A stretch of DNA of 34,239 nucleotides from a virus (Duplodnaviria; Heunggongvirae; Uroviricota; Caudoviricetes). Shown one piece after another: positions 1 through 8,627 of the stretch. The notes under the pieces are model-generated. The model did no database searches. It had not been told where the DNA came from and saw only the letters and a list, made by a program, of their open reading frames with translations. The stretch is taken from the IMG/VR virus record IMGVR_UViG_2917881069_000005. The stretch is one strand, 5' to 3'. Numbering within the stretch: the stretch's first letter is position 1; the number at the start of each line of letters is the position of its first letter. The position numbers were made by a program, and so were the translations under genes.

Positions 1-474
1 ATGTACAGCCCGGTACAAATAGCCAATAAATTCATAACGTTGGGAAACCAACATCATAATCCTCTGACCCACATGCAACTGCAGAAGCTTACTTATATTG
101 CCCATGGTTACTATTTAGCATTAACAGGTAAGCCTTTGCTCAACGAATGTGTCTCTGCGTGGAAGTACGGTCCGGTTATTCCCGGAATGTACGATGCTTT
201 CAAAGATTATGGGAATAAGCCTGTTACGAATGTAGCAGTAGCTCCTTTTGGTGGCATTGTTACTATGGATCCGCAAGCAGAGAGCATTATAGGGGCTGTT
301 TATAAATTTTACGGCTCGAAAAATGGAATTGAGTTATCAACTCTAACTCATATGCCAGGTACGCCTTGGTCACAAACTTATAATGGTATTGGCTCGTCAA
401 TCATCCCAGATGATGCGATCAAGACTTATTATCATGATTTATTGAATAACCGACAGCAATGTCAGGGCCTCTGA
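1..474 (+). CDS. Panacea-domain (DUF4065, SocA/GepA-like) protein; putative antitoxin or abortive-infection component
   Basis: 157-aa ORF starting at window base 1; signatures recalled for Panacea/DUF4065 (LTHMQLQKLTYIAHGYYLA, AWKYGPVIP, LSTLTHMPGTPW); may be 5'-truncated by the window edge. Confidence 0.6.
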   Translation: MYSPVQIANKFITLGNQHHNPLTHMQLQKLTYIAHGYYLALTGKPLLNECVSAWKYGPVIPGMYDAFKDYGNKPVTNVAVAPFGGIVTMDPQAESIIGAVYKFYGSKNGIELSTLTHMPGTPWSQTYNGIGSSIIPDDAIKTYYHDLLNNRQQCQGL

Positions 475-496
475 AAAAGTAATATTCAGGGATGAC

Positions 497-1045
497 ATGT
501 CTCGCAATTCAGATATCTATAAACTTATCGGAGCGGCTGCAGGTGTTGAAAATGGTCGCTCTGAAGCATCCTTAAACTATACTGACAGTCAAGAACAGGT
601 TTTTAAATCTGCATTTGAGCCGTCTAATCATGAGAGCGATGATGATTCTTCTTCAGAAAATAAAGCTATTCTGGAGGAAGAAGAGTTTGGTTCTAATACA
701 GGTGCATTGCATGAGTTTATGCAGCAGCACAGAATGGACAGTCTTCAAGCTCAGCTTGATATGCTCAAATCACAAGTACGCGATAAGATAGCTGACGCAA
801 CTGGTAAAGAAATAGACAATGAACTTCGGACAAAAATGGCATCATTCACGGTTTGTTTTATGTCGTGGTGGTGCTTATTTGTAGCCGTAATGTTTGTATC
901 GTTTCTTATTGCTCATGAAGGAAAGCCTCCAGTTGAAGCAATCGTTGCATTACTAGGTACAAGTACAATTAGCATTGTTGGTTTGGTTGGTTTCGTTGTT
1001 AGTGGATTGTTCAAATCAAGAAAAGATGGCGATAAAGAAAAATAA
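497..1045 (+). CDS. small membrane protein: acidic Asp/Ser/Glu-rich and coiled-coil N-terminal part, two C-terminal hydrophobic helices; putative toxin/effector partner
   Basis: 182-aa ORF 22 bp downstream of the Panacea ORF on the same strand; hydrophobic segments FTVCFMSWWCLFVAVMFVSFLIA and AIVALLGTSTISIVGLVGFVVSGLF; no family recognised. Confidence 0.5.
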   Translation: MSRNSDIYKLIGAAAGVENGRSEASLNYTDSQEQVFKSAFEPSNHESDDDSSSENKAILEEEEFGSNTGALHEFMQQHRMDSLQAQLDMLKSQVRDKIADATGKEIDNELRTKMASFTVCFMSWWCLFVAVMFVSFLIAHEGKPPVEAIVALLGTSTISIVGLVGFVVSGLFKSRKDGDKEK

Positions 1046-1063
1046 CCCGTATATACACGGGTT
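1044..1063. terminator. hairpin between convergent genes (possible bidirectional terminator)
   Basis: AACCCGT-atatac-ACGGGTT perfect 7-bp stem between the + strand ORF ending 1045 and the - strand ORF ending 1079; A-rich upstream, T-containing downstream. Confidence 0.4.
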
Positions 1064-1078
1064 ATTCATGGTTTTAGT

Positions 1079-1378
1079 TTAGTTATATTTTTGTTTATCC
1101 GTTCTGACCTTTTCCCACTCAGCTCGTCCTTCTTCTCGTCTTTTGTCTATGTATTCCGCAAGATCCTGAATATTGATGCAACGTTTTGCTTTTTGTGATG
1201 TGCCGATGCGATATGTTGGAACGGGCAACTTACAAGCGTTTGCTTTTGCTTCTGCCGTGGCTGGGCTCATGCCAAAGTACTTTTGGCTAACTGCTGAGAG
1301 TTCAATGTTAGGGGTATTGAATTCAGCCATCAGTAAAAACAAGGTGTTCATAATTTTCTCCATCAAAACCGGCTGCAC
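1079..1378 (-). CDS. excisionase-like DNA-binding protein (PrtN family-like)
   Basis: 99-aa ORF; LLMAEF...LPVPTYRIG.SQKAKRCINIQDLAEYIDKRR resembles PrtN/phage excisionase family; last gene of the leftward operon. Confidence 0.6.
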   Translation of the reverse strand: MQPVLMEKIMNTLFLLMAEFNTPNIELSAVSQKYFGMSPATAEAKANACKLPVPTYRIGTSQKAKRCINIQDLAEYIDKRREEGRAEWEKVRTDKQKYN

Positions 1379-1387
1379 CCGGGAAAA

Positions 1388-1960
1388 TCATAATTCTGTG
1401 CTGGTGGCAGGAATTAATTTCTGCCAGATAGCGGAAACATATTTTGCCTGATGACGAGCATCAGCTAGGGCGTTGTGCCGTTCGCCATCGAAAGGCATGT
1501 CCATTTTGGGGTCGAATCCGATGGAACGCCCAAGCGTAACGATCGTGCGTACATCGTGATCATTCCAGTACGCCCATGGGCAGATTTGTCCTGCTCGCTC
1601 ATAAGCTCCGCGTAAAATTACGTTGTCGAAGTTGGCTCCGTTACCCCAGACTTTTAAATATTTCGTATTGTCCGCGTGCCGATTAATGAAATGGCTCAGT
1701 TCAGAGAGTGCATCGCTGATCGATAAAGTATCATCAATACAGATTGCAGCTCGTGCTTCAGGGCTTTGTTTCAACCACCACAGGATGGTATCGCCGTCAG
1801 GTGTGGCCCCTTGCTCCATAGCACTTTCCAGGCTAACAACCGTATAGAATTCTTGTCCGATATCTCCTGTTTCTGGGGTGAAGAACACTGCGCCAATGGA
1901 AACGATCGGTGCATCCTTATTTTTCCCCATCGTCTCAAGGTCGATCATTAAGTTGTTCAT
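1388..1960 (-). CDS. DnaQ-like DEDDh 3'-5' exonuclease
   Basis: Exo motifs MIDLETMG and HNALADA; start set at internal MNNLM (codon 19 of ORF 1388..2014), giving an ATGA overlap with the upstream gene stop at 1960. Confidence 0.7.
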   Translation of the reverse strand: MNNLMIDLETMGKNKDAPIVSIGAVFFTPETGDIGQEFYTVVSLESAMEQGATPDGDTILWWLKQSPEARAAICIDDTLSISDALSELSHFINRHADNTKYLKVWGNGANFDNVILRGAYERAGQICPWAYWNDHDVRTIVTLGRSIGFDPKMDMPFDGERHNALADARHQAKYVSAIWQKLIPATSTEL

Positions 1961-2433
1961 CACTCCACCTCCTGCTTCGGTTCTTGTATCGGCATCCATC
2001 TGATTACATCGCAATTACTTAGGTTGATGTCATCTCCAAGCCATCCTTGACCTTCAGACCAGCATTGCACGTAATACCCGCCTTCTGTGTCCACTACGCA
2101 CCACTGCGCGTCGTTCGGCATTCGCTCACTACAGCTTATCCAACCATCTGGAGCTACCGGTGCTGGAGGATAGCGATACAACGGAATAACTCGGCGCGGG
2201 TCCGCGTATTTATCTGGCGGACACGGCAATATGTAGCCGCAACCAATCCGCTCGACGTCTCGTAACTCTTCGTCATCAGTCCATGCTATCGGCTCTGCTT
2301 CCAGTGATGCCAGTGCGATACGAAACACATTAGCAAGCAGACTGTTTGACGATTGGTTATCGTGCGCCGGGTCGCTCAGGAAACCAGTGATGAATGATTT
2401 AATCTCCGCGCTTTCTCTGGTAATAGTGGTCAT
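1960..2433 (-). CDS. DUF551-type phage protein
   Basis: 157-aa ORF; C-terminal W-rich region (WISCSERMP...IRWMP) typical of DUF551 in lambdoid early regions. Confidence 0.5.
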   Translation of the reverse strand: MTTITRESAEIKSFITGFLSDPAHDNQSSNSLLANVFRIALASLEAEPIAWTDDEELRDVERIGCGYILPCPPDKYADPRRVIPLYRYPPAPVAPDGWISCSERMPNDAQWCVVDTEGGYYVQCWSEGQGWLGDDINLSNCDVIRWMPIQEPKQEVE

Positions 2434-2434
2434 A

Positions 2435-2623
2435 TCACTCTCCTTTAGTGCGCCCGTGGTTTTTCCAGCGGTTTTGCGCCGCGCTGGGTTTGTTAAGAGA
2501 ACACATCACGATATCAGCCGTGTTTGTGAACAATCCCATTCTGCGGTTACTGAGTTTTAACCATTGCTGGACGCCGCGCGCGTTTCTACAGGTCAAAAGA
2601 ATTTTTGCTTTACGGTTTTTCAT
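2435..2623 (-). CDS. small basic hypothetical protein (62 aa)
   Basis: ORF track; starts MKNRKAK, identical to first 7 codons of the upstream small ORF; start overlaps upstream stop (ATGA). Confidence 0.35.
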   Translation of the reverse strand: MKNRKAKILLTCRNARGVQQWLKLSNRRMGLFTNTADIVMCSLNKPSAAQNRWKNHGRTKGE

Positions 2624-2796
2624 CTTACTGCGTACCCTTTCTTCCGCCTGTTCTGTGACGCGCTAGGCTTACGCTTTGCGGCAAAAGCCACCTGACCAAA
2701 TGGATGGAATACCGCTATCTTATGGTTGCTGATAACCAGCTCCACCACACGCACAGGTCGCTGTAAAAAAAGTCGTTTTGCTTTACGGTTTTTCAT
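2620..2796 (-). CDS. small basic hypothetical protein (about 58 aa)
   Basis: Hand-translated (below the ORF-track size cutoff): MKNRKAKRLFLQRPVRVVELVISNHKIAVFHPFGQVAFAAKRKPSASQNRRKKGYAVR; AGGAGA about 9 nt upstream of ATG. Confidence 0.3.
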   Translation of the reverse strand: MKNRKAKRLFLQRPVRVVELVISNHKIAVFHPFGQVAFAAKRKPSASQNRRKKGYAVR

Positions 2797-2969
2797 CGTT
2801 TTGCTCTCCTGCGTTTCTTTGCTGCACGTCGTGCCGCCGCAATACCTGTATGGCGGCGCTTTGGTGCCGGGATGCCGCCATCAGTAGTAAAAAAAATGTG
2901 GTTTTATGAGTGACATATCCGCCCAAAGGCGGATCGGATGCGGTAACAGGCCAACAAATGCCACCTGCA

Positions 2970-3299
2970 TTACGTATTCTCCTTGTGCAGTTGCTTATTA
3001 ACGTAATCCACAATTTCAGATGACAGTTCAAACGGCGATTTCATCGCGTCAATATCCAGGTTTCTGTCAATATGTCGGATTAAATCATTCAGGGTTTCAG
3101 CACGGATTCCAGATTCAGAAATGCTGTTTTTGCGGCGCTCCTGAAGTTCAATCAGGGACTGCCGTAAGAGCGTCCACCACTCGCTGTCTACAACCGGCGA
3201 ACGCATACCCAGCATTTTGTCAGCAGCGGCAATCAGCTCGGTCAGGCTCTTATCGCTTATAGTGGTTTGTTGGTTCGCTTTTGTTTCCAGTACGCTCAT
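2970..3299 (-). CDS. hypothetical early protein (position and size resemble CPS-53 YfdT)
   Basis: 109-aa ORF, 4-bp overlap with upstream gene; no domain recognised. Confidence 0.45.
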   Translation of the reverse strand: MSVLETKANQQTTISDKSLTELIAAADKMLGMRSPVVDSEWWTLLRQSLIELQERRKNSISESGIRAETLNDLIRHIDRNLDIDAMKSPFELSSEIVDYVNKQLHKENT

Positions 3300-3658
3300 T
3301 TCTTATTCTCCGGTGCTTTCGGCATTACTGCCCAGTGAGTGATATTGACGTTTTCAAGGTCCCCGACCTGAAATGTCCACTGCCATTCTCCGGTTTCTTT
3401 TTGCCCCCAGGTGTACCAGAGAGAACGCCAGCCAATTAGCCAGCCTTCTCCGTTAGCATCGAATAACAAAACACTTTCATTTGCTGGTGGCAGTGCAGTT
3501 GACACTGGTATTACTTTGTTTTCCAGTGCCGCACATTTAGCTTCAAGCGCATCGAATTTACGCACCAGGTATTCAGCATCTGTTTCATTCACTTTCAGGT
3601 CTCGCGGTACACATCTCCCACGAAGAAACCCTTCCATTTCGAAAACATTCATGCGCAT
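3296..3658 (-). CDS. hypothetical early protein (position and size resemble CPS-53 YfdS, 120 aa)
   Basis: 120-aa ORF in operon; no domain recognised. Confidence 0.45.
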   Translation of the reverse strand: MRMNVFEMEGFLRGRCVPRDLKVNETDAEYLVRKFDALEAKCAALENKVIPVSTALPPANESVLLFDANGEGWLIGWRSLWYTWGQKETGEWQWTFQVGDLENVNITHWAVMPKAPENKK

Positions 3659-4185
3659 TTGCGTAACTCCGATAACTCGTTAAAACGTTCCATAAACATC
3701 CAGTAGGCATGGCCCGGTGCCAGTGGAATCACTTTGAACATCTCTGTTGTCGGGATACCTTCCAGTACAGGCCAGAAAGAGCCATCATCAAGTCCGAGAT
3801 CGCGGCGTTCGGTTGCCAGCATAATGAGATCGGCATATTTCACTGGCGTGCTCATAACCGGAGGTAACCCGTATTTCTCACGGATTACGGCGTCTATTTT
3901 TTCTTCCATCCGTTTATAGTCAGGAAGAAGGCGTTTCAGTGGTGCGGGAATGTCCTGGCAATACGCTTCTGTTGCATCATGCATTAACGCTTCAAAAGCA
4001 AATTCCTGCGGCACCAGCTGGCTGCAAAGAACCGCATGTTGGGCGACGCTGTAGAAGTGTGAAAGATGACCGGCAAAGCGACAGATATTTGAAAGGGAAA
4101 CCGCGATATCGTTAATATCGATGTCGTCTTTATTTATCTTGTCATAATAAAAATGCTTCCCGGAAAAAGTTTTAATAAATGACAT
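3649..4185 (-). CDS. yfdR: HD-domain phosphohydrolase, YfdR-like
   Basis: H..H...D-type HD signature (HLSHFYSVAQHAVLCSQLV, EALMHDATEAY); start chosen at MSFIK (178 aa) with GGAGAA RBS; ORF track 3649..4212. Confidence 0.65.
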   Translation of the reverse strand: MSFIKTFSGKHFYYDKINKDDIDINDIAVSLSNICRFAGHLSHFYSVAQHAVLCSQLVPQEFAFEALMHDATEAYCQDIPAPLKRLLPDYKRMEEKIDAVIREKYGLPPVMSTPVKYADLIMLATERRDLGLDDGSFWPVLEGIPTTEMFKVIPLAPGHAYWMFMERFNELSELRKCA

Positions 4186-4312
4186 TTTGTTCTCCACGTA
4201 TATGCGCTGCACCGCGCTGAATTCTGGTAAAAGGAAGCCCTCACCATCCGGCGATTATTGAGTCAATTACGTTTCCATAAATGCCCCCGCAGGGGCATTT
4301 GCAGTAATGAAA

Positions 4313-5137
4313 TCAGGCGGTGAAAGTACCAATAAAGGTTTCTACTTTGCTGTCTTTGAATTTCTCAACAAGCAGATCACGAAATTCGTTAGCCATTTCT
4401 TCCTGCACTGCTTCCAGCTGAATAATGCGCAGAACCAGTACAGGACGATCGCCAGTGATAATGCTGAGGCGTAATTTAAACGGACGTTCTTTCAGGCCTT
4501 CAAACGGAACGCATTTAAATTCAAATGCCACTGGCATAATGTCTTTGGTTTTCGCTTCGACAGACTCCATCAGGGAGCGTTTGCCGCTGAAGTCATTATC
4601 TTCAAAATCAGCGGTCTTGTTTGCTTCAATCGTGATTTTACGGACTGCCGCAGCCGCTTTTGTTGCCTGAATAGCGTCACCATTAGCATCAAAGCCCACA
4701 AGGTAGTCGGCCCAGTCTTCAATCCATTCTGCCAGTGACTTCTGGGAGTTACGCTCGCCGTTAACAGACAACAGGGCAGAGAACGGTGCTGTCTTTTTCA
4801 GTTTGAGAGTGGCGGTGTTATCTGCGTGACCTGGTTCATCAATAGTACCCAGGTTAAGCACACTGACTGCTCGCATATTATCGGCATCGATAAAGCAGCG
4901 GGTGCCTTCATCTGCAAGATCTTTAGAATAACGGGTAAAGTCATCGATGCTGGCAGTGGAAAGCGCACCACGGAAACGGAAGCGATTTAAATTAAATTTT
5001 TCCAGATCATGAATGCGGAAATTCTCAGGCAATGCCACAGCATCGGCACCAATCTTACTGATAATTTCATTAACACCCTGAGCAGAAATAAGGGCATGGA
5101 TTTGATTAATTGCGGTTGCGTCTAAGTTCTGAGACAT
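4313..5137 (-). CDS. yfdQ: DUF2303 protein, YfdQ-like
   Basis: 274-aa ORF; size, position and sequence character match recollection of E. coli CPS-53 YfdQ. Confidence 0.6.
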
Positions 5138-5202
5138 AATAAGTCCTCACTATATAAAGATATTCAGTGATGAGATAAATAATCGGTTAATTAAGAACGA
5201 TA

Positions 5203-5565
5203 TTAATGACCTGCTGCGCGGAGTTTTCCGTCAGGTTCACCGGCAAGAGTCAGTAATTGTCCCTGGTCTTCCTGCAGAATAGTCAGGCGACCACCGCGAT
5301 TGACATACATCGGCGTTTCGGTGGTGTCTTCTTCGGAAATTTTCCCGCGGTTAGTCGGGCGAACATATGAGAGTTTGTGTTTGATTTTCACACGGTTCTC
5401 ATCAAACGGTTCGATGTCCAGATTGACCGAGACTTTACCTTTGTTTTTCGTGTTCATCACACCGGAAGCGACTTCACTGAGAACTGCGCCGAGTTTGGTT
5501 TCAAATACGCCGCCGTCCAGTTCTACGATAAATTCCTGCACGTTGGTACTGCGTTCGCTAGCCAT
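5203..5565 (-). CDS. hypothetical protein, YfdP-like (120 aa)
   Basis: Start set at internal MASERS with GAGGAG 8 nt upstream (ORF track 5203..5796 is an N-terminally over-extended frame). Confidence 0.5.
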   Translation of the reverse strand: MASERSTNVQEFIVELDGGVFETKLGAVLSEVASGVMNTKNKGKVSVNLDIEPFDENRVKIKHKLSYVRPTNRGKISEEDTTETPMYVNRGGRLTILQEDQGQLLTLAGEPDGKLRAAGH

Positions 5566-5613
5566 TTTGCTGCTCCTCATCATATCGACCCTGCAAGGTC
5601 GGTTGGTTTCTCC

Positions 5614-5746
5614 ACAAAACAGAGAAGAACACCTGCGGTGACTGCCGCCCGGATGGATTGGGTTATGAGCCCGTCGTCCGGTGATGCTCTTCTCTGTTTT
5701 GTAAAAAGGACGGTACCAGCCGGAAGCAAGGGTACAAGCTGGTACC
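5614..5746. promoter_or_regulatory. structured non-coding region: 15-bp perfect inverted repeat with 59-nt spacer plus GGTACC/GGTACAAG operator-like repeats (candidate OL/pL region)
   Basis: ACAAAACAGAGAAGA (about 5614-5628) and TCTTCTCTGTTTTGT (about 5688-5702); GGTACCAGC/GCTGGTACC pair flanking GGTACAAG (about 5712-5746), same half-site as the cI-cro operator. Confidence 0.4.
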
Positions 5747-6198
5747 GCCAACGCAGTGGCAGTTGTGGCGGGGTTGTCACTCAGGCGTATGGTCAACCTG
5801 ACAATCCGGTGTCCTCAACGGGGAAAGAGTAACCCCGCCATACTTACCGCCGCGCCATTTCGCGGATTACCACAACGCTGAGAGCACTTAGCCAGTTACG
5901 GCACCACACTTTGTCGCGGCTCCATAAATGCTCTTATCGTTGCACCCTGGTCTCTTCCCAGGCGTCAAACCGAATCGCCACGCTGGTTAGGCGTCTTATC
6001 AGCATCATCATTGACTTGCACATTCCGGCTACCTGGTTTGTTTGCCCGAGCAAGGAGTGGATTGTCCCCTTTAACGTCCCCAGACCGCTAACGACGCATG
6101 TGCCATACGCCGTGTTACAACCAAATTTTGTTTGAATCTTGCCTGTTGCATGTTTCTTTTGGATACATTATGTATCTCAAAGGTACATTGTCAAGTAT

Positions 6199-6221
6199 AA
6201 AAAAACCTGCCGAAGCAGGTT
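6199..6221 (-). terminator. rho-independent terminator downstream of cI-like repressor gene
   Basis: On minus strand CCTGC-ttcg-GCAGG stem followed by T7 run, immediately after the repressor stop at 6234. Confidence 0.5.
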
Positions 6222-6233
6222 CATAAATATTGA

Positions 6234-6908
6234 TTAGGCCTTTATTTTGTATCTTCTTGGTTTTCCCGAGAAAATCACTGTACCAATTATAGAGCAATTA
6301 CCGTTGATCTTAATGTAAGGTTCAGGCCAGTTTGGGTTTAATGCTTTGAGGTAACGCTGTGTTCCATCTTCTATCAACCGCTTGAAGGTGGTTTCGCCTG
6401 TATCGTGCATCAATGCAATAACGTCGTCACCGTGGCAGGCAGGGACTTCAGGATCAACAAAAATCATGTCTCCCGGGCGGTACTCATCAATCATTGAATC
6501 ACCAATCACCCGCAAGATATAAGTCATTTCGCCACAGGGTACAGGGCAGGGATAAGTTTCTGCTGTGCTCAAATCAACCTCAGAATAGCCAACTTCTTTC
6601 CATGCTCCGGCCTGTACCCATGATATGACAGGGACTAACGTTATTTGTTTGTTAGTGATTGAAACATCAGGTTTTTTTGTGATGTTCGTTGTCTGGTGTT
6701 CTTGATCAAGCCATCCGACAGGCAGGTCGAAACATTTTTCGATGTGCCGTGCCATGCTGTCACCGATATTTTTAGTTGCACCATCTCCCATAAACCTGCT
6801 GGTCTGGGTTGGCTCGCGATCAATCATGGTGGCAAAGGAAGAATTCCCGCCAACACCATCTCTCAGTTTTCTGGCGTTAGACCGCCGGATGTCATGGACT
6901 GTTTTCAT
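6234..6908 (-). CDS. CI-like prophage repressor with LexA-like S24 peptidase domain
   Basis: 224-aa ORF; C-terminal S24 signature (GDSM...GD.IFVDPE, Ser/Lys-dyad-type region); divergent from cro-like gene. Confidence 0.8.
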   Translation of the reverse strand: MKTVHDIRRSNARKLRDGVGGNSSFATMIDREPTQTSRFMGDGATKNIGDSMARHIEKCFDLPVGWLDQEHQTTNITKKPDVSITNKQITLVPVISWVQAGAWKEVGYSEVDLSTAETYPCPVPCGEMTYILRVIGDSMIDEYRPGDMIFVDPEVPACHGDDVIALMHDTGETTFKRLIEDGTQRYLKALNPNWPEPYIKINGNCSIIGTVIFSGKPRRYKIKA

Positions 6909-6998
6909 AATGAAATTAAAACCCTTGTACCGTTAAGGTACAAGTATCTTGAAGGTTCATTTTAATCATGTAATATGTACATCGGAGGTACATATTGT
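6909..6998. promoter_or_regulatory. divergent cI/cro promoter-operator region with two palindromic operators
   Basis: Perfect 21-bp palindrome CTTGTACC-GTTAA-GGTACAAG (about 6923-6943) and ATGTACA-N6-GTACAT (about 6973-6993), the latter overlapping the cro RBS GGAGG. Confidence 0.5.
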
Positions 6999-7199
6999 AT
7001 GAAAGCGTATTGGGACTCTTTAACCAAAGAACAGCAGGGCGAGTTGGCCGGAAAAGTTGGCTCAACACCAGGCTACTTACGGCTGGTTTTCAATGGTTAT
7101 AAAAAAGCCAGTTTTGTGCTGGCTAAAAAACTTGAGCAATGCACGTCAGGTGCAATTACGAAATCTGACTTAAGACCGGATATCTATCCGAAAGATTAA
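6999..7199 (+). CDS. Cro-like HTH regulator (YdaS-like)
   Basis: Start at internal MKAYWD preceded by GGAGG; 66 aa; small HTH protein divergent from repressor. Confidence 0.6.
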   Translation: MKAYWDSLTKEQQGELAGKVGSTPGYLRLVFNGYKKASFVLAKKLEQCTSGAITKSDLRPDIYPKD

Positions 7200-7230
7200 C
7201 AGAACACCTTCAATTTTTAACCACAGAACG

Positions 7231-7794
7231 ATGAGGCTAACCGTGGGTAAGCATCACTGGAAAGTAGAAAAACAGCCTGAGTGGTACGTGAAAGCTGTCA
7301 GAAAAACTATCGCGGCGTTGCCGGGGGGGTACGCTGAAGCTGCTGAGTGGCTGGATGTAACAGAGAACGCTTTATTCAACCGCCTTCGTGCAGATGGCGA
7401 TCAGATTTTCCCGCTGGGATGGGCAATGATTTTACAGCGCGCGGCTGGCACTCACTACATTGCGGATGCTGTCGCACAGTCTGCTGGTGGGGTGTTTGTA
7501 TCGCTTCCTGAAATTGAGGAAGTAGAGAACGCCGATATAAACCAGCGCCTGCTGGAAGTCATCGAACAGATCGGGAGTTACTCAAAGCAGATTCGTTCGG
7601 CAATCGAAGATGGGGTAGTGGAGCCACACGAGCAGACAGCAATTAATGATGAGTTGTATCTGTCAATTTCGAAGCTCCAGGAGCATGCAGCACTGGTCTA
7701 CAAAATCTTTTGCGCTCCAGAAAAGAGTGACGCCCGCGAGTGTGCAGCTCCGGGCGTCGTGGCGTTTTGTGTCTGTGGAGAAACTAACGCATGA
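7231..7794 (+). CDS. YdaT-like protein (proposed CII-type regulator)
   Basis: 187-aa ORF directly after cro; position and sequence character as in Rac-type ydaS-ydaT pairs. Confidence 0.4.
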   Translation: MRLTVGKHHWKVEKQPEWYVKAVRKTIAALPGGYAEAAEWLDVTENALFNRLRADGDQIFPLGWAMILQRAAGTHYIADAVAQSAGGVFVSLPEIEEVENADINQRLLEVIEQIGSYSKQIRSAIEDGVVEPHEQTAINDELYLSISKLQEHAALVYKIFCAPEKSDARECAAPGVVAFCVCGETNA

Positions 7795-8627
7795 ACAGTT
7801 TAACGGCAAATAATCGTTTGTCGCAACAGCTGGTGGTCAGTGTCGCTGAACACCTGTTGTTACGGCATGAATGCAGATTACCAAATCACCTGGCTGTAAG
7901 TAACCACAGAGAACTTTACCTGACTGTGGGGGGCGAGTTGTGCAGGAACTTAACCGCTGGTTTCGTGACGGAAGAGGGCTTTATGTCCATGTTATTCGTT
8001 GGGAGCCAGAAACACAGCGCGTTATCTATCTTCGCAAAGACTACCCGCATGAGTGCTTTAGTCCTTTGTGGAAATTCAGGCGTGATTTTGTTGAGTGTGA
8101 AGGACCACCAGCACATTGATTCTGCCATTCCGGGACGTTACACTGTTCAGGCACCTTATAAAGCGGGTGCCGGGATTGGCGTCCTGGAATTGCATACGGC
8201 GACAATTGGCGCGTTAGCGTCTTTTTTGTTGCTACAACTCAGCTATACCCAAATTATGGTGGGCTGGGTGGGGGCACCGAAAGGTGCGCCGGTTTCCGTA
8301 TGCGCCGGTTACGCCAACCCTGCTCAGTTCACCACCAGCGAAATTGGCGTTTCCGGTGGTGGAAGTTATCCATTGCATACGGAGGCTGCCATCATGGCTA
8401 CTGTCCCAGCCCTCTCTCGTCTGAATGATGACGACTTACATAAACTCAGTTATGTAACAACTGCACTACGTGCTCTGCGCAAGGTAACTCTTTCGGATCC
8501 GCAGGCGCATCAGGTTCTGGTAGAAACCCTTCTTAACTTGCAGGCTGAACGTATTCGTCTGGCGGATAAGGCTAATTTTCATATTCACCGTCTCCTTAAT
8601 ATCAGCGGAGGGCATCGTCATGCTTAA
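7791..8627 (+). CDS. hypothetical protein
   Basis: 278-aa ORF; ATGA overlap with upstream stop suggests translational coupling; no domain recognised. Confidence 0.4.
   Translation: MNSLTANNRLSQQLVVSVAEHLLLRHECRLPNHLAVSNHRELYLTVGGELCRNLTAGFVTEEGFMSMLFVGSQKHSALSIFAKTTRMSALVLCGNSGVILLSVKDHQHIDSAIPGRYTVQAPYKAGAGIGVLELHTATIGALASFLLLQLSYTQIMVGWVGAPKGAPVSVCAGYANPAQFTTSEIGVSGGGSYPLHTEAAIMATVPALSRLNDDDLHKLSYVTTALRALRKVTLSDPQAHQVLVETLLNLQAERIRLADKANFHIHRLLNISGGHRHA

Follow-up and report, generated by a model that had tools for sequence, protein, structure and literature searches.

Tandem genes of the small basic phrog_1380 family as the probable source of an exact 22-bp repeat in a lambdoid prophage

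RESULTS

Relationship of ORF A and ORF B

The window analysed here is the whole IMG/VR virus record IMGVR_UViG_2917881069_000005, a stretch of 34,239 bases from an HK97/mEp460-like lambdoid prophage. On its minus strand lie two small adjacent open reading frames (ORFs), the upstream ORF A and the downstream ORF B, which begin with the same 22 base pairs. We consider it probable that A and B are tandem paralogues of phrog_1380, a PHROG profile of 62 positions and unknown function, that they belong to a lambdoid early accessory operon in which they are translated in series, and that the 22-bp repeat represents their conserved first codons. The pair is an ordinary tandem duplication of a hypothetical phage gene that has already been catalogued and is already present in public records. 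Proteins identical to A (WP_167852329.1) and B (WP_135520796.1) are listed at NCBI, both as 'hypothetical protein' of Escherichia sp. E2661, and the GenBank notes of two further family members, phiV10 p50 and p51, record the similarity of these proteins to each other.

The initial annotation had described the bodies of the two ORFs as diverging after codon 7, which is contradicted by the similarity that extends beyond the repeat. In a BLASTP comparison, residues 1-54 of A and B aligned with 43% identity (E 4e-12), and an alignment of the DNA of both genes from the window and three other phages showed four shared blocks, namely the start, W/L-x-x-SN, KPSA(A/S)QNR(W/R)K and the 3′ end. Both products match phrog_1380 along their length, with residues 1-58 of A falling on profile positions 1-60 of 62 (E 1.8e-22) and residues 1-62 of B on positions 1-62 of 62 (E 7.2e-26). 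Both also carry the motifs M[KN]NRKA[KR], [RK][ILV]SN[RH][RK] and [ST]A[AS]QNR[WR]K. A-type sequences are marked by ISNHK and QNRRKKGYAVR, and B-type sequences by LSNRR and SAAQNRWKNH. Judged by these alignments, A and B are best described as tandem whole-gene paralogues of one small and very basic family, in place of the duplicated start module that had been proposed for them. An assembly duplication, which had also been considered, is excluded by the presence of the same tandem pair in 47 independently assembled loci.

Other parts of the initial annotation were borne out. Both copies of the repeat start minus-strand ORFs with MKNRKAK, of 58 and 62 amino acids according to the ORF list, an ATGA joins the two ORFs, and the second of them abuts a gene with a DUF551 domain after a gap of one base. 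Only the position of one repeat copy needed correction, as given below.

Position and conservation of the 22-bp repeat

The 22-mer (TTTTGCTTTACGGTTTTTCATC) was found in two exact copies, at plus-strand positions 2603-2624 and 2776-2797; the second had been placed correctly, and the first lies one base to the right of the 2602-2623 reported initially. A third copy was not found anywhere in the window, even when up to three mismatches were allowed, and 100 dinucleotide-preserving shuffles of the window gave no match to the 22-mer. Read on the minus strand, each copy consists of a single G and codons 1-7 of the ORF. At the start of A, this leading G is the final base of the preceding arginine codon. 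At the start of B, it is the middle base of AGA, the last codon of A. In both cases the base at position -1 thus sits in an arginine codon of an upstream ORF that ends in ...(A/C)GA-TGA over the ATG. Within the family, no other block is as strongly conserved as the 22-mer, which comprises the codons for MKNRKAK plus the base at -1.

Comparison of tandem pairs from other loci was used to distinguish conservation of the peptide from conservation of the nucleic acid. Only 3 of 47 tandem pairs, those of the window and of two further loci, have identical 22-mers. The remaining 44 show differences at two or three synonymous third codon positions (AAA/AAG, GCA/GCT, AAC/AAT). Since the differences in these 44 pairs are confined to synonymous sites, it is the N-terminus of the peptide that is conserved and not an RNA or DNA element. 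Consistent with this, divergent members of the family use other synonymous codons, for example ATG AAT AAT CGC AAA GCA or ATG CGT AAC CGC AAA GTG. The sequence comparison therefore identifies the peptide MKNRKAK as the target of selection, and an A-rich, unstructured initiation region has probably been selected alongside it.

The alternative, proposed in the initial annotation, is that a 22-bp start module or a shared cis-regulatory RNA or DNA element was duplicated in front of unrelated ORFs. The 22-mer is exact in the window, far beyond what chance would give, the block ATGAAAAACCGT is nearly invariant throughout the family, and an imperfect copy of the block (77%) stands directly upstream of the A start at 2796-2817. 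We nevertheless regard such an element as very unlikely. A and B are homologous over their whole length, the 44 non-identical pairs vary at synonymous third positions only, and distant members change the codons and keep the peptide. Also, an Rfam scan of positions 1-8000 of the window gave no match at E <= 1, and the RNA at the A start folds worse than shuffled sequences (z +1.6).

Further sequence features were observed around the start of A. In most loci, the first gene of the family is preceded by a conserved block CGCAGGAGAGCAAA(A/G)CGATG. On the minus strand, positions 2773-2794 and 2796-2817 form the imperfect tandem repeat of 23 nucleotides mentioned above (GAAACGCAGGAGAGCAAAACGAT and GAAAAACCGTAAAGCAAAACGAC, 77%). 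The end of the preceding ORF, here called ORF C (KKRRRAKR), resembles the start of A (MKNRKAKR), each being read in its own frame. This likeness may be due to chance, given the basic composition of both, or may be a trace of the origin of the junction.

Distribution and diversity of the phrog_1380 family

Members of phrog_1380 include VT2-Sakai orf8, phiV10 p50 and p51, TL-2011c gp07, CurroJimenez_Bas106 gene 0023 and WP_000797279.1. Further relatives occur in other Stx phages, P1-like phage-plasmids, Sashavirus, HK225 and D6, and all of them are labelled 'hypothetical protein'. The family is found mainly in phages of Escherichia and Salmonella, where its niche is the early-left accessory region of the exo-xis type in Stx, P1-like, phiV10, HK225 and P22-like phages. 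Matching DNA was detected in 599 of 5426 complete E. coli genomes, and the commonest variants are present on at least 1000 contigs. An exhaustive search of 1.84 billion representative proteins with a hidden Markov model returned only 45 clusters, and the family is therefore small. When one genome per species was scanned across bacteria, the only match was JQCU01000388.1, a contig of 228 bp (L087 in our set). This contig is labelled Acinetobacter idrijaensis and carries the gene pair of an Escherichia phage, probably as a contamination.

The layout of the genes was counted in a set of 88 loci. Of these, 40 have A followed by B with a 4-nucleotide overlap, 36 have only B, and 3 have a recombinant paralogue ahead of B; two copies of A are frameshifted. 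Complete members have 58-64 amino acids and more, and their lengths are consistent with insertions and deletions of whole codons. The divergent members, which share 29-52% identity with B (mostly <45%), keep the three peptide motifs M[KN]NRKA[KR], [RK][ILV]SN[RH][RK] and SAAQNRWKNH. Two of these divergent members follow ERF/SSB genes in the early part of P22-like phages, with starts and stops that overlap.

Several genes combine parts of different origin. The product of phiV10 p50 (L006 1322..1504) is B-like in its first two thirds and A-like at its end (QNRRKKGYAVR), and halves of family members are fused to Ea22-like or DUF4014 neighbours in P0010, P0032 and P0037. Such chimeras show that recombination inside these genes is frequent. 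Accordingly, a short and recent conversion or recombination tract could have made the two 22-mers of the window identical on top of paralogy. The rarity of identical pairs (3 of 47) and the recombination seen in phiV10 p50 and the three fusions would fit such an event. On the other hand, only two synonymous sites separate the identical pairs from typical ones, so that independent mutation or the ancestral state explains the identity equally well, and the identical run stops after 22 nucleotides. We therefore think a conversion event improbable as the explanation to be preferred; the exact identity of the 22-mers in the window may be ancestral, may be due to chance or may stem from a short tract of conversion.

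Evidence that A and B are protein-coding genes

Coding constraint was assessed by the ratio of non-synonymous to synonymous polymorphism (pN/pS), obtained by Nei-Gojobori counting for every pair of distinct sequences. The annotated frame yields a pN/pS of 0.29 for A (13 distinct sequences) and 0.36 for B (22 distinct sequences), and the ratio is about 1 or higher in four of the five other frames. For the antisense frame with shared wobble positions, the values are 0.34 for A and 0.40 for B, so pN/pS alone leaves the strand unfixed. A count of open frames did separate the two: none of 13 distinct A sequences and only 4 of 29 distinct B sequences leave this antisense frame open along the whole gene. 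It lacks a conserved start, and no promoter-like site was found on either strand between 1900 and 3700. These patterns point to A and B as real protein-coding genes under moderate constraint.

In the window itself, a plus-strand ORF of 72 amino acids (2448..2666), antisense to B, is fully open. One might suppose that this is the true gene, as its frame runs through the whole of B without a stop in the window and low pN/pS values are seen in this frame through the shared wobble positions. We consider this extremely unlikely. The frame is closed in the great majority of the related sequences counted above, the ORF starts with a GTG that has no conserved Shine-Dalgarno (SD) sequence and no promoter-like site nearby, and all neighbouring genes lie on the minus strand and have coupled junctions. 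The open antisense ORF is probably a by-product of biased codon content.

A different view would be that A and B are non-functional, either as decaying duplicates or as spacers for a relay of ribosomes that are conserved for their end signals only. The constraint on both genes is indeed only moderate, the middle third is hypervariable, the 3′ ends hold the SD sequence of the next gene, frameshifted and truncated copies exist, A is optional, and no function is known. However, the motifs [RK][ILV]SN[RH][RK] and SAAQNRWKNH are too far from the gene ends to serve as initiation signals, both are kept with unrelated flanks and different codons, and AlphaFold yields a consistent compact fold when given diverse sequences. 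Non-functional ORFs thus seem unlikely to us, and functional paralogues remain the preferred reading. Both genes appear to be dispensable, since A is frequently missing and some copies are broken.

Translation signals

Initiation at ATGA after termination of the preceding gene is classical in polycistronic operons of bacteria and phages. The A-B pair resembles such coupled genes in its overlap of 4 nucleotides, which is kept in 45 tandem pairs, and in the weak SD sequence of the second gene: B is preceded only by an SD-like AAGGG at 11 nucleotides from the AUG. By its stop/start overlap, the pair is a candidate for translational coupling. The junction to the DUF551 gene is of the same classical kind, in that the SD sequence of this gene (AAGGAG) is embedded in the preceding coding sequence, within the final codons of B (ACT AAA GGA GAG TGA, which encode TKGE and the stop).

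RNA folding of the A-B junction gave -26.8 kcal/mol with a z score of -2.09; as 7 of 200 shuffles folded equally well, this result is marginal. The predicted helix, in which the 3′ end of A pairs with codons 8-12 of B, encloses the AAGGG and the AUG of B. Taken together, we propose that A would initiate from its own AGGAG, that B would be translated mainly by reinitiation of ribosomes that finish A at the ATGA, and that the last codons of B would supply the SD sequence for the DUF551 gene. According to the folding model, the local mRNA helix may strengthen the dependence of B on translation of A.

Predicted fold and possible function

For B, AlphaFold with an alignment of 34 sequences predicted a helix-strand-strand-strand-helix arrangement, with a mean predicted local distance difference test score (pLDDT) of 83.3 and a predicted template modelling score (pTM) of 0.55. 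The model consists of an N-terminal basic helix, a three-stranded sheet and a C-terminal basic helix that contains SAAQNRWKNH. An earlier run with a shallow alignment of 20 sequences had given a single long helix of low confidence (pLDDT 67.6) and was dropped for the 34-sequence run.

No significant structural neighbour of the predicted fold was observed in PDB or BFVD. Neither Pfam nor NCBIfam gave any match for A or B, Pfam at E <= 10 gave only scattered single matches among 34 family members, and the PADLOC models of anti-phage defence components had no match at E <= 1 in A, B, ORF C or the neighbouring gene of 109 amino acids. When PDB sequences were searched with the profile of the family, only a non-significant match to an NHL-repeat-like motif in TRIM71 (E 0.5) was returned. 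Literature searches, including those for the peptide string and for exo-xis papers, found no study of phrog_1380.

Several resemblances were considered and dropped. A likeness to NUMOD4, HNH or AP2 was dropped, as no such Pfam match was present in the 34 members. A likeness to CsrA (LILTRRVGE compared with ILLVRRNAPG) was rejected at an hhalign probability of 0.06%. The predicted model resembles AP2/ERF, the arm-binding domain of lambda Int and Tn916 Int-N, which are DNA-binding domains built of a three-stranded sheet and a helix, with a basic tail at the N-terminus. The model is of similar size to these and likewise has a basic segment at its N-terminus and a core of beta-beta-beta-alpha topology. 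Membership in the AP2/Int arm-binding fold was rejected, as no significant structural similarity to a solved member was observed.

Because of their charge and predicted fold only, we suggest as a tentative possibility that the products of A and B act soon after infection or induction by binding nucleic acid or an acidic partner of host or phage. They would then be dispensable accessory factors. A more specific and rather doubtful idea is that phrog_1380 and the basic ORF C together make up a cassette, so far uncharacterised, of small early proteins that bind nucleic acid and have an orphan fold, in which a heteromer of A and B might bind phage or host RNA or DNA and tune the choice between lysis and lysogeny or the takeover of the host, as other exo-xis proteins do.

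Genomic setting

Over about 80% of its first 25 kb, the window is 98% identical to the Escherichia phages PhiR55_1, PhiR40_1 and PhiR47_1. A, B and all their neighbours are located on the minus strand in a leftward accessory operon of the early, pL-type class. This operon begins on the side of cI, with homologues of YfdP, YfdQ and YfdR, and extends to the excisionase gene, with A and B in between. The coordinates of the features are given in Table 1.

Table 1. Features of the A-B region and their positions in the window
Feature	Position	Strand	Description
ORF A	2620..2796	-	58 amino acids, net charge about +15, MKNRKAKRLFLQRPVRVVELVISNHKIAVFHPFGQVAFAAKRKPSASQNRRKKGYAVR; upstream paralogue
ORF B	2435..2623	-	62 amino acids, net charge about +12, MKNRKAKILLTCRNARGVQQWLKLSNRRMGLFTNTADIVMCSLNKPSAAQNRWKNHGRTKGE; downstream paralogue
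22-mer copy, A start	2776..2797	-	G ATG AAA AAC CGT AAA GCA AAA
22-mer copy, B start	2603..2624	-	same G and codons 1-7, MKNRKAK
ATGA stop/start overlap A-B	2620..2623	-	A stop TGA 2622-2620, B start ATG 2623-2621
SD sequence AGGAG for A	2806..2810	-	9 nucleotides before the A start
SD sequence AAGGAG for the DUF551 gene	2440..2445	-	6 nucleotides before the ATG of that gene
Predicted mRNA helix	2588..2651	-	3′ end of A (2638-2651) predicted to pair with B codons 8-12 (2588-2601)
DUF551 gene	1960..2433	-	157 amino acids, Pfam PF04448, E 7.3e-08
ORF C remnant (phrog_13831)	2793..2874	-	...IPAPKRRHTGIAAARRAAKKRRRAKR and stop; stop overlaps the A start as ATGA

A single base separates the stop codon of B (TGA, 2437-2435) from the ATG of the DUF551 gene (2433-2431). 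At least nine different genes follow the same 3′ end of B in different phages, with a spacer that is nearly always 1 nucleotide, and this variety is typical lambdoid mosaicism. A second, different gene with a DUF551 domain (3296..3658, minus strand, E 2.5e-04) was noticed in the same operon, about 860 nucleotides from the first.

In PhiR55_1 and PhiR47_1, a single ea22 lies between the exonuclease gene and an EaE/DUF551-like gene. In the window, this slot (2014..3296) holds the gene of 109 amino acids, the remnant of ORF C, A, B and the DUF551 gene. By this comparison of gene order, a mosaic module replaces the ea22 of the closest relatives. Elsewhere, ORF C encodes a basic protein (MRVACIG...KRRHTGIAAARRAAKRRRRAKR) and usually precedes family genes, its stop forming an ATGA with the next ATG; it is intact and coupled in this way in about 75 of 88 related loci. 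The window retains only its last 26 codons or so and lacks its start codon and its N-terminal half. The homology with other phages ends near 2874, which marks a mosaic joint.

Two short GC-rich hairpins were observed in the non-coding stretch of 170 nucleotides upstream of A, one formed by CGCCGCAATAC and GTATGGCGGCG (2835-2845/2848-2858) and the other by ATCCGCC-CAAA-GGCGGAT (2917-2935). Neither of them directly precedes a run of T or was called by the terminator scan, and the promoter and terminator scan showed nothing relevant. At the left end of the window, two plus-strand genes (1..474 and 497..1045) form a toxin-antitoxin-like cassette; in the near-identical PhiR47_1, these two are labelled as an antitoxin, PanA, and a (membrane) toxin, PanT. 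In PhiR55_1, the slot is taken by YafM/YafO, and the cassette has therefore been swapped between phages that are otherwise 98% identical.

DISCUSSION

Our data indicate that the exact repeat is nothing more than an ordinary outcome of the tandem duplication of a gene in a lambdoid mosaic accessory region. The family concerned is widespread in the prophages of pathogenic E. coli, in Stx phages and in P1-like plasmids. Its confidently predicted orphan fold and its exo-xis location make it a reasonable, low-priority candidate for screens of small proteins.

In phage lambda, the exo-xis region's small genes comprise orf60a, orf63, orf61, orf73, ea22 and ea8.5 (PMC8614690, PMC4195576). Stx phages are reported to carry extra genes as well as full or partial duplications in this region (PMC8614690), and the small exo-xis proteins are known to bias lysis versus lysogeny in these phages (PMC8614690, PMC10789677). 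Like the exo-xis genes, A and B are located in the distal part of the early-left operon between the recombination genes and int/xis, and their products are likewise small and apparently dispensable. In VT2-Sakai, the lambda-like orf60a, orf63, orf61 and ea22 (orf12 to orf9) are separate from the family member orf8, for which no lambda counterpart is noted. Homology to the lambda exo-xis proteins was not seen in Pfam and NCBIfam scans or in the VT2-Sakai annotation, sources that include no direct pairwise comparison.

Within phrog_1380, the pair of the window differs from other members in the exact identity of its 22-nucleotide starts and in having no intact ORF C upstream. With these members it shares the full-length match to the profile, the peptide motifs, the niche in the phage genome and the tandem A-B layout.
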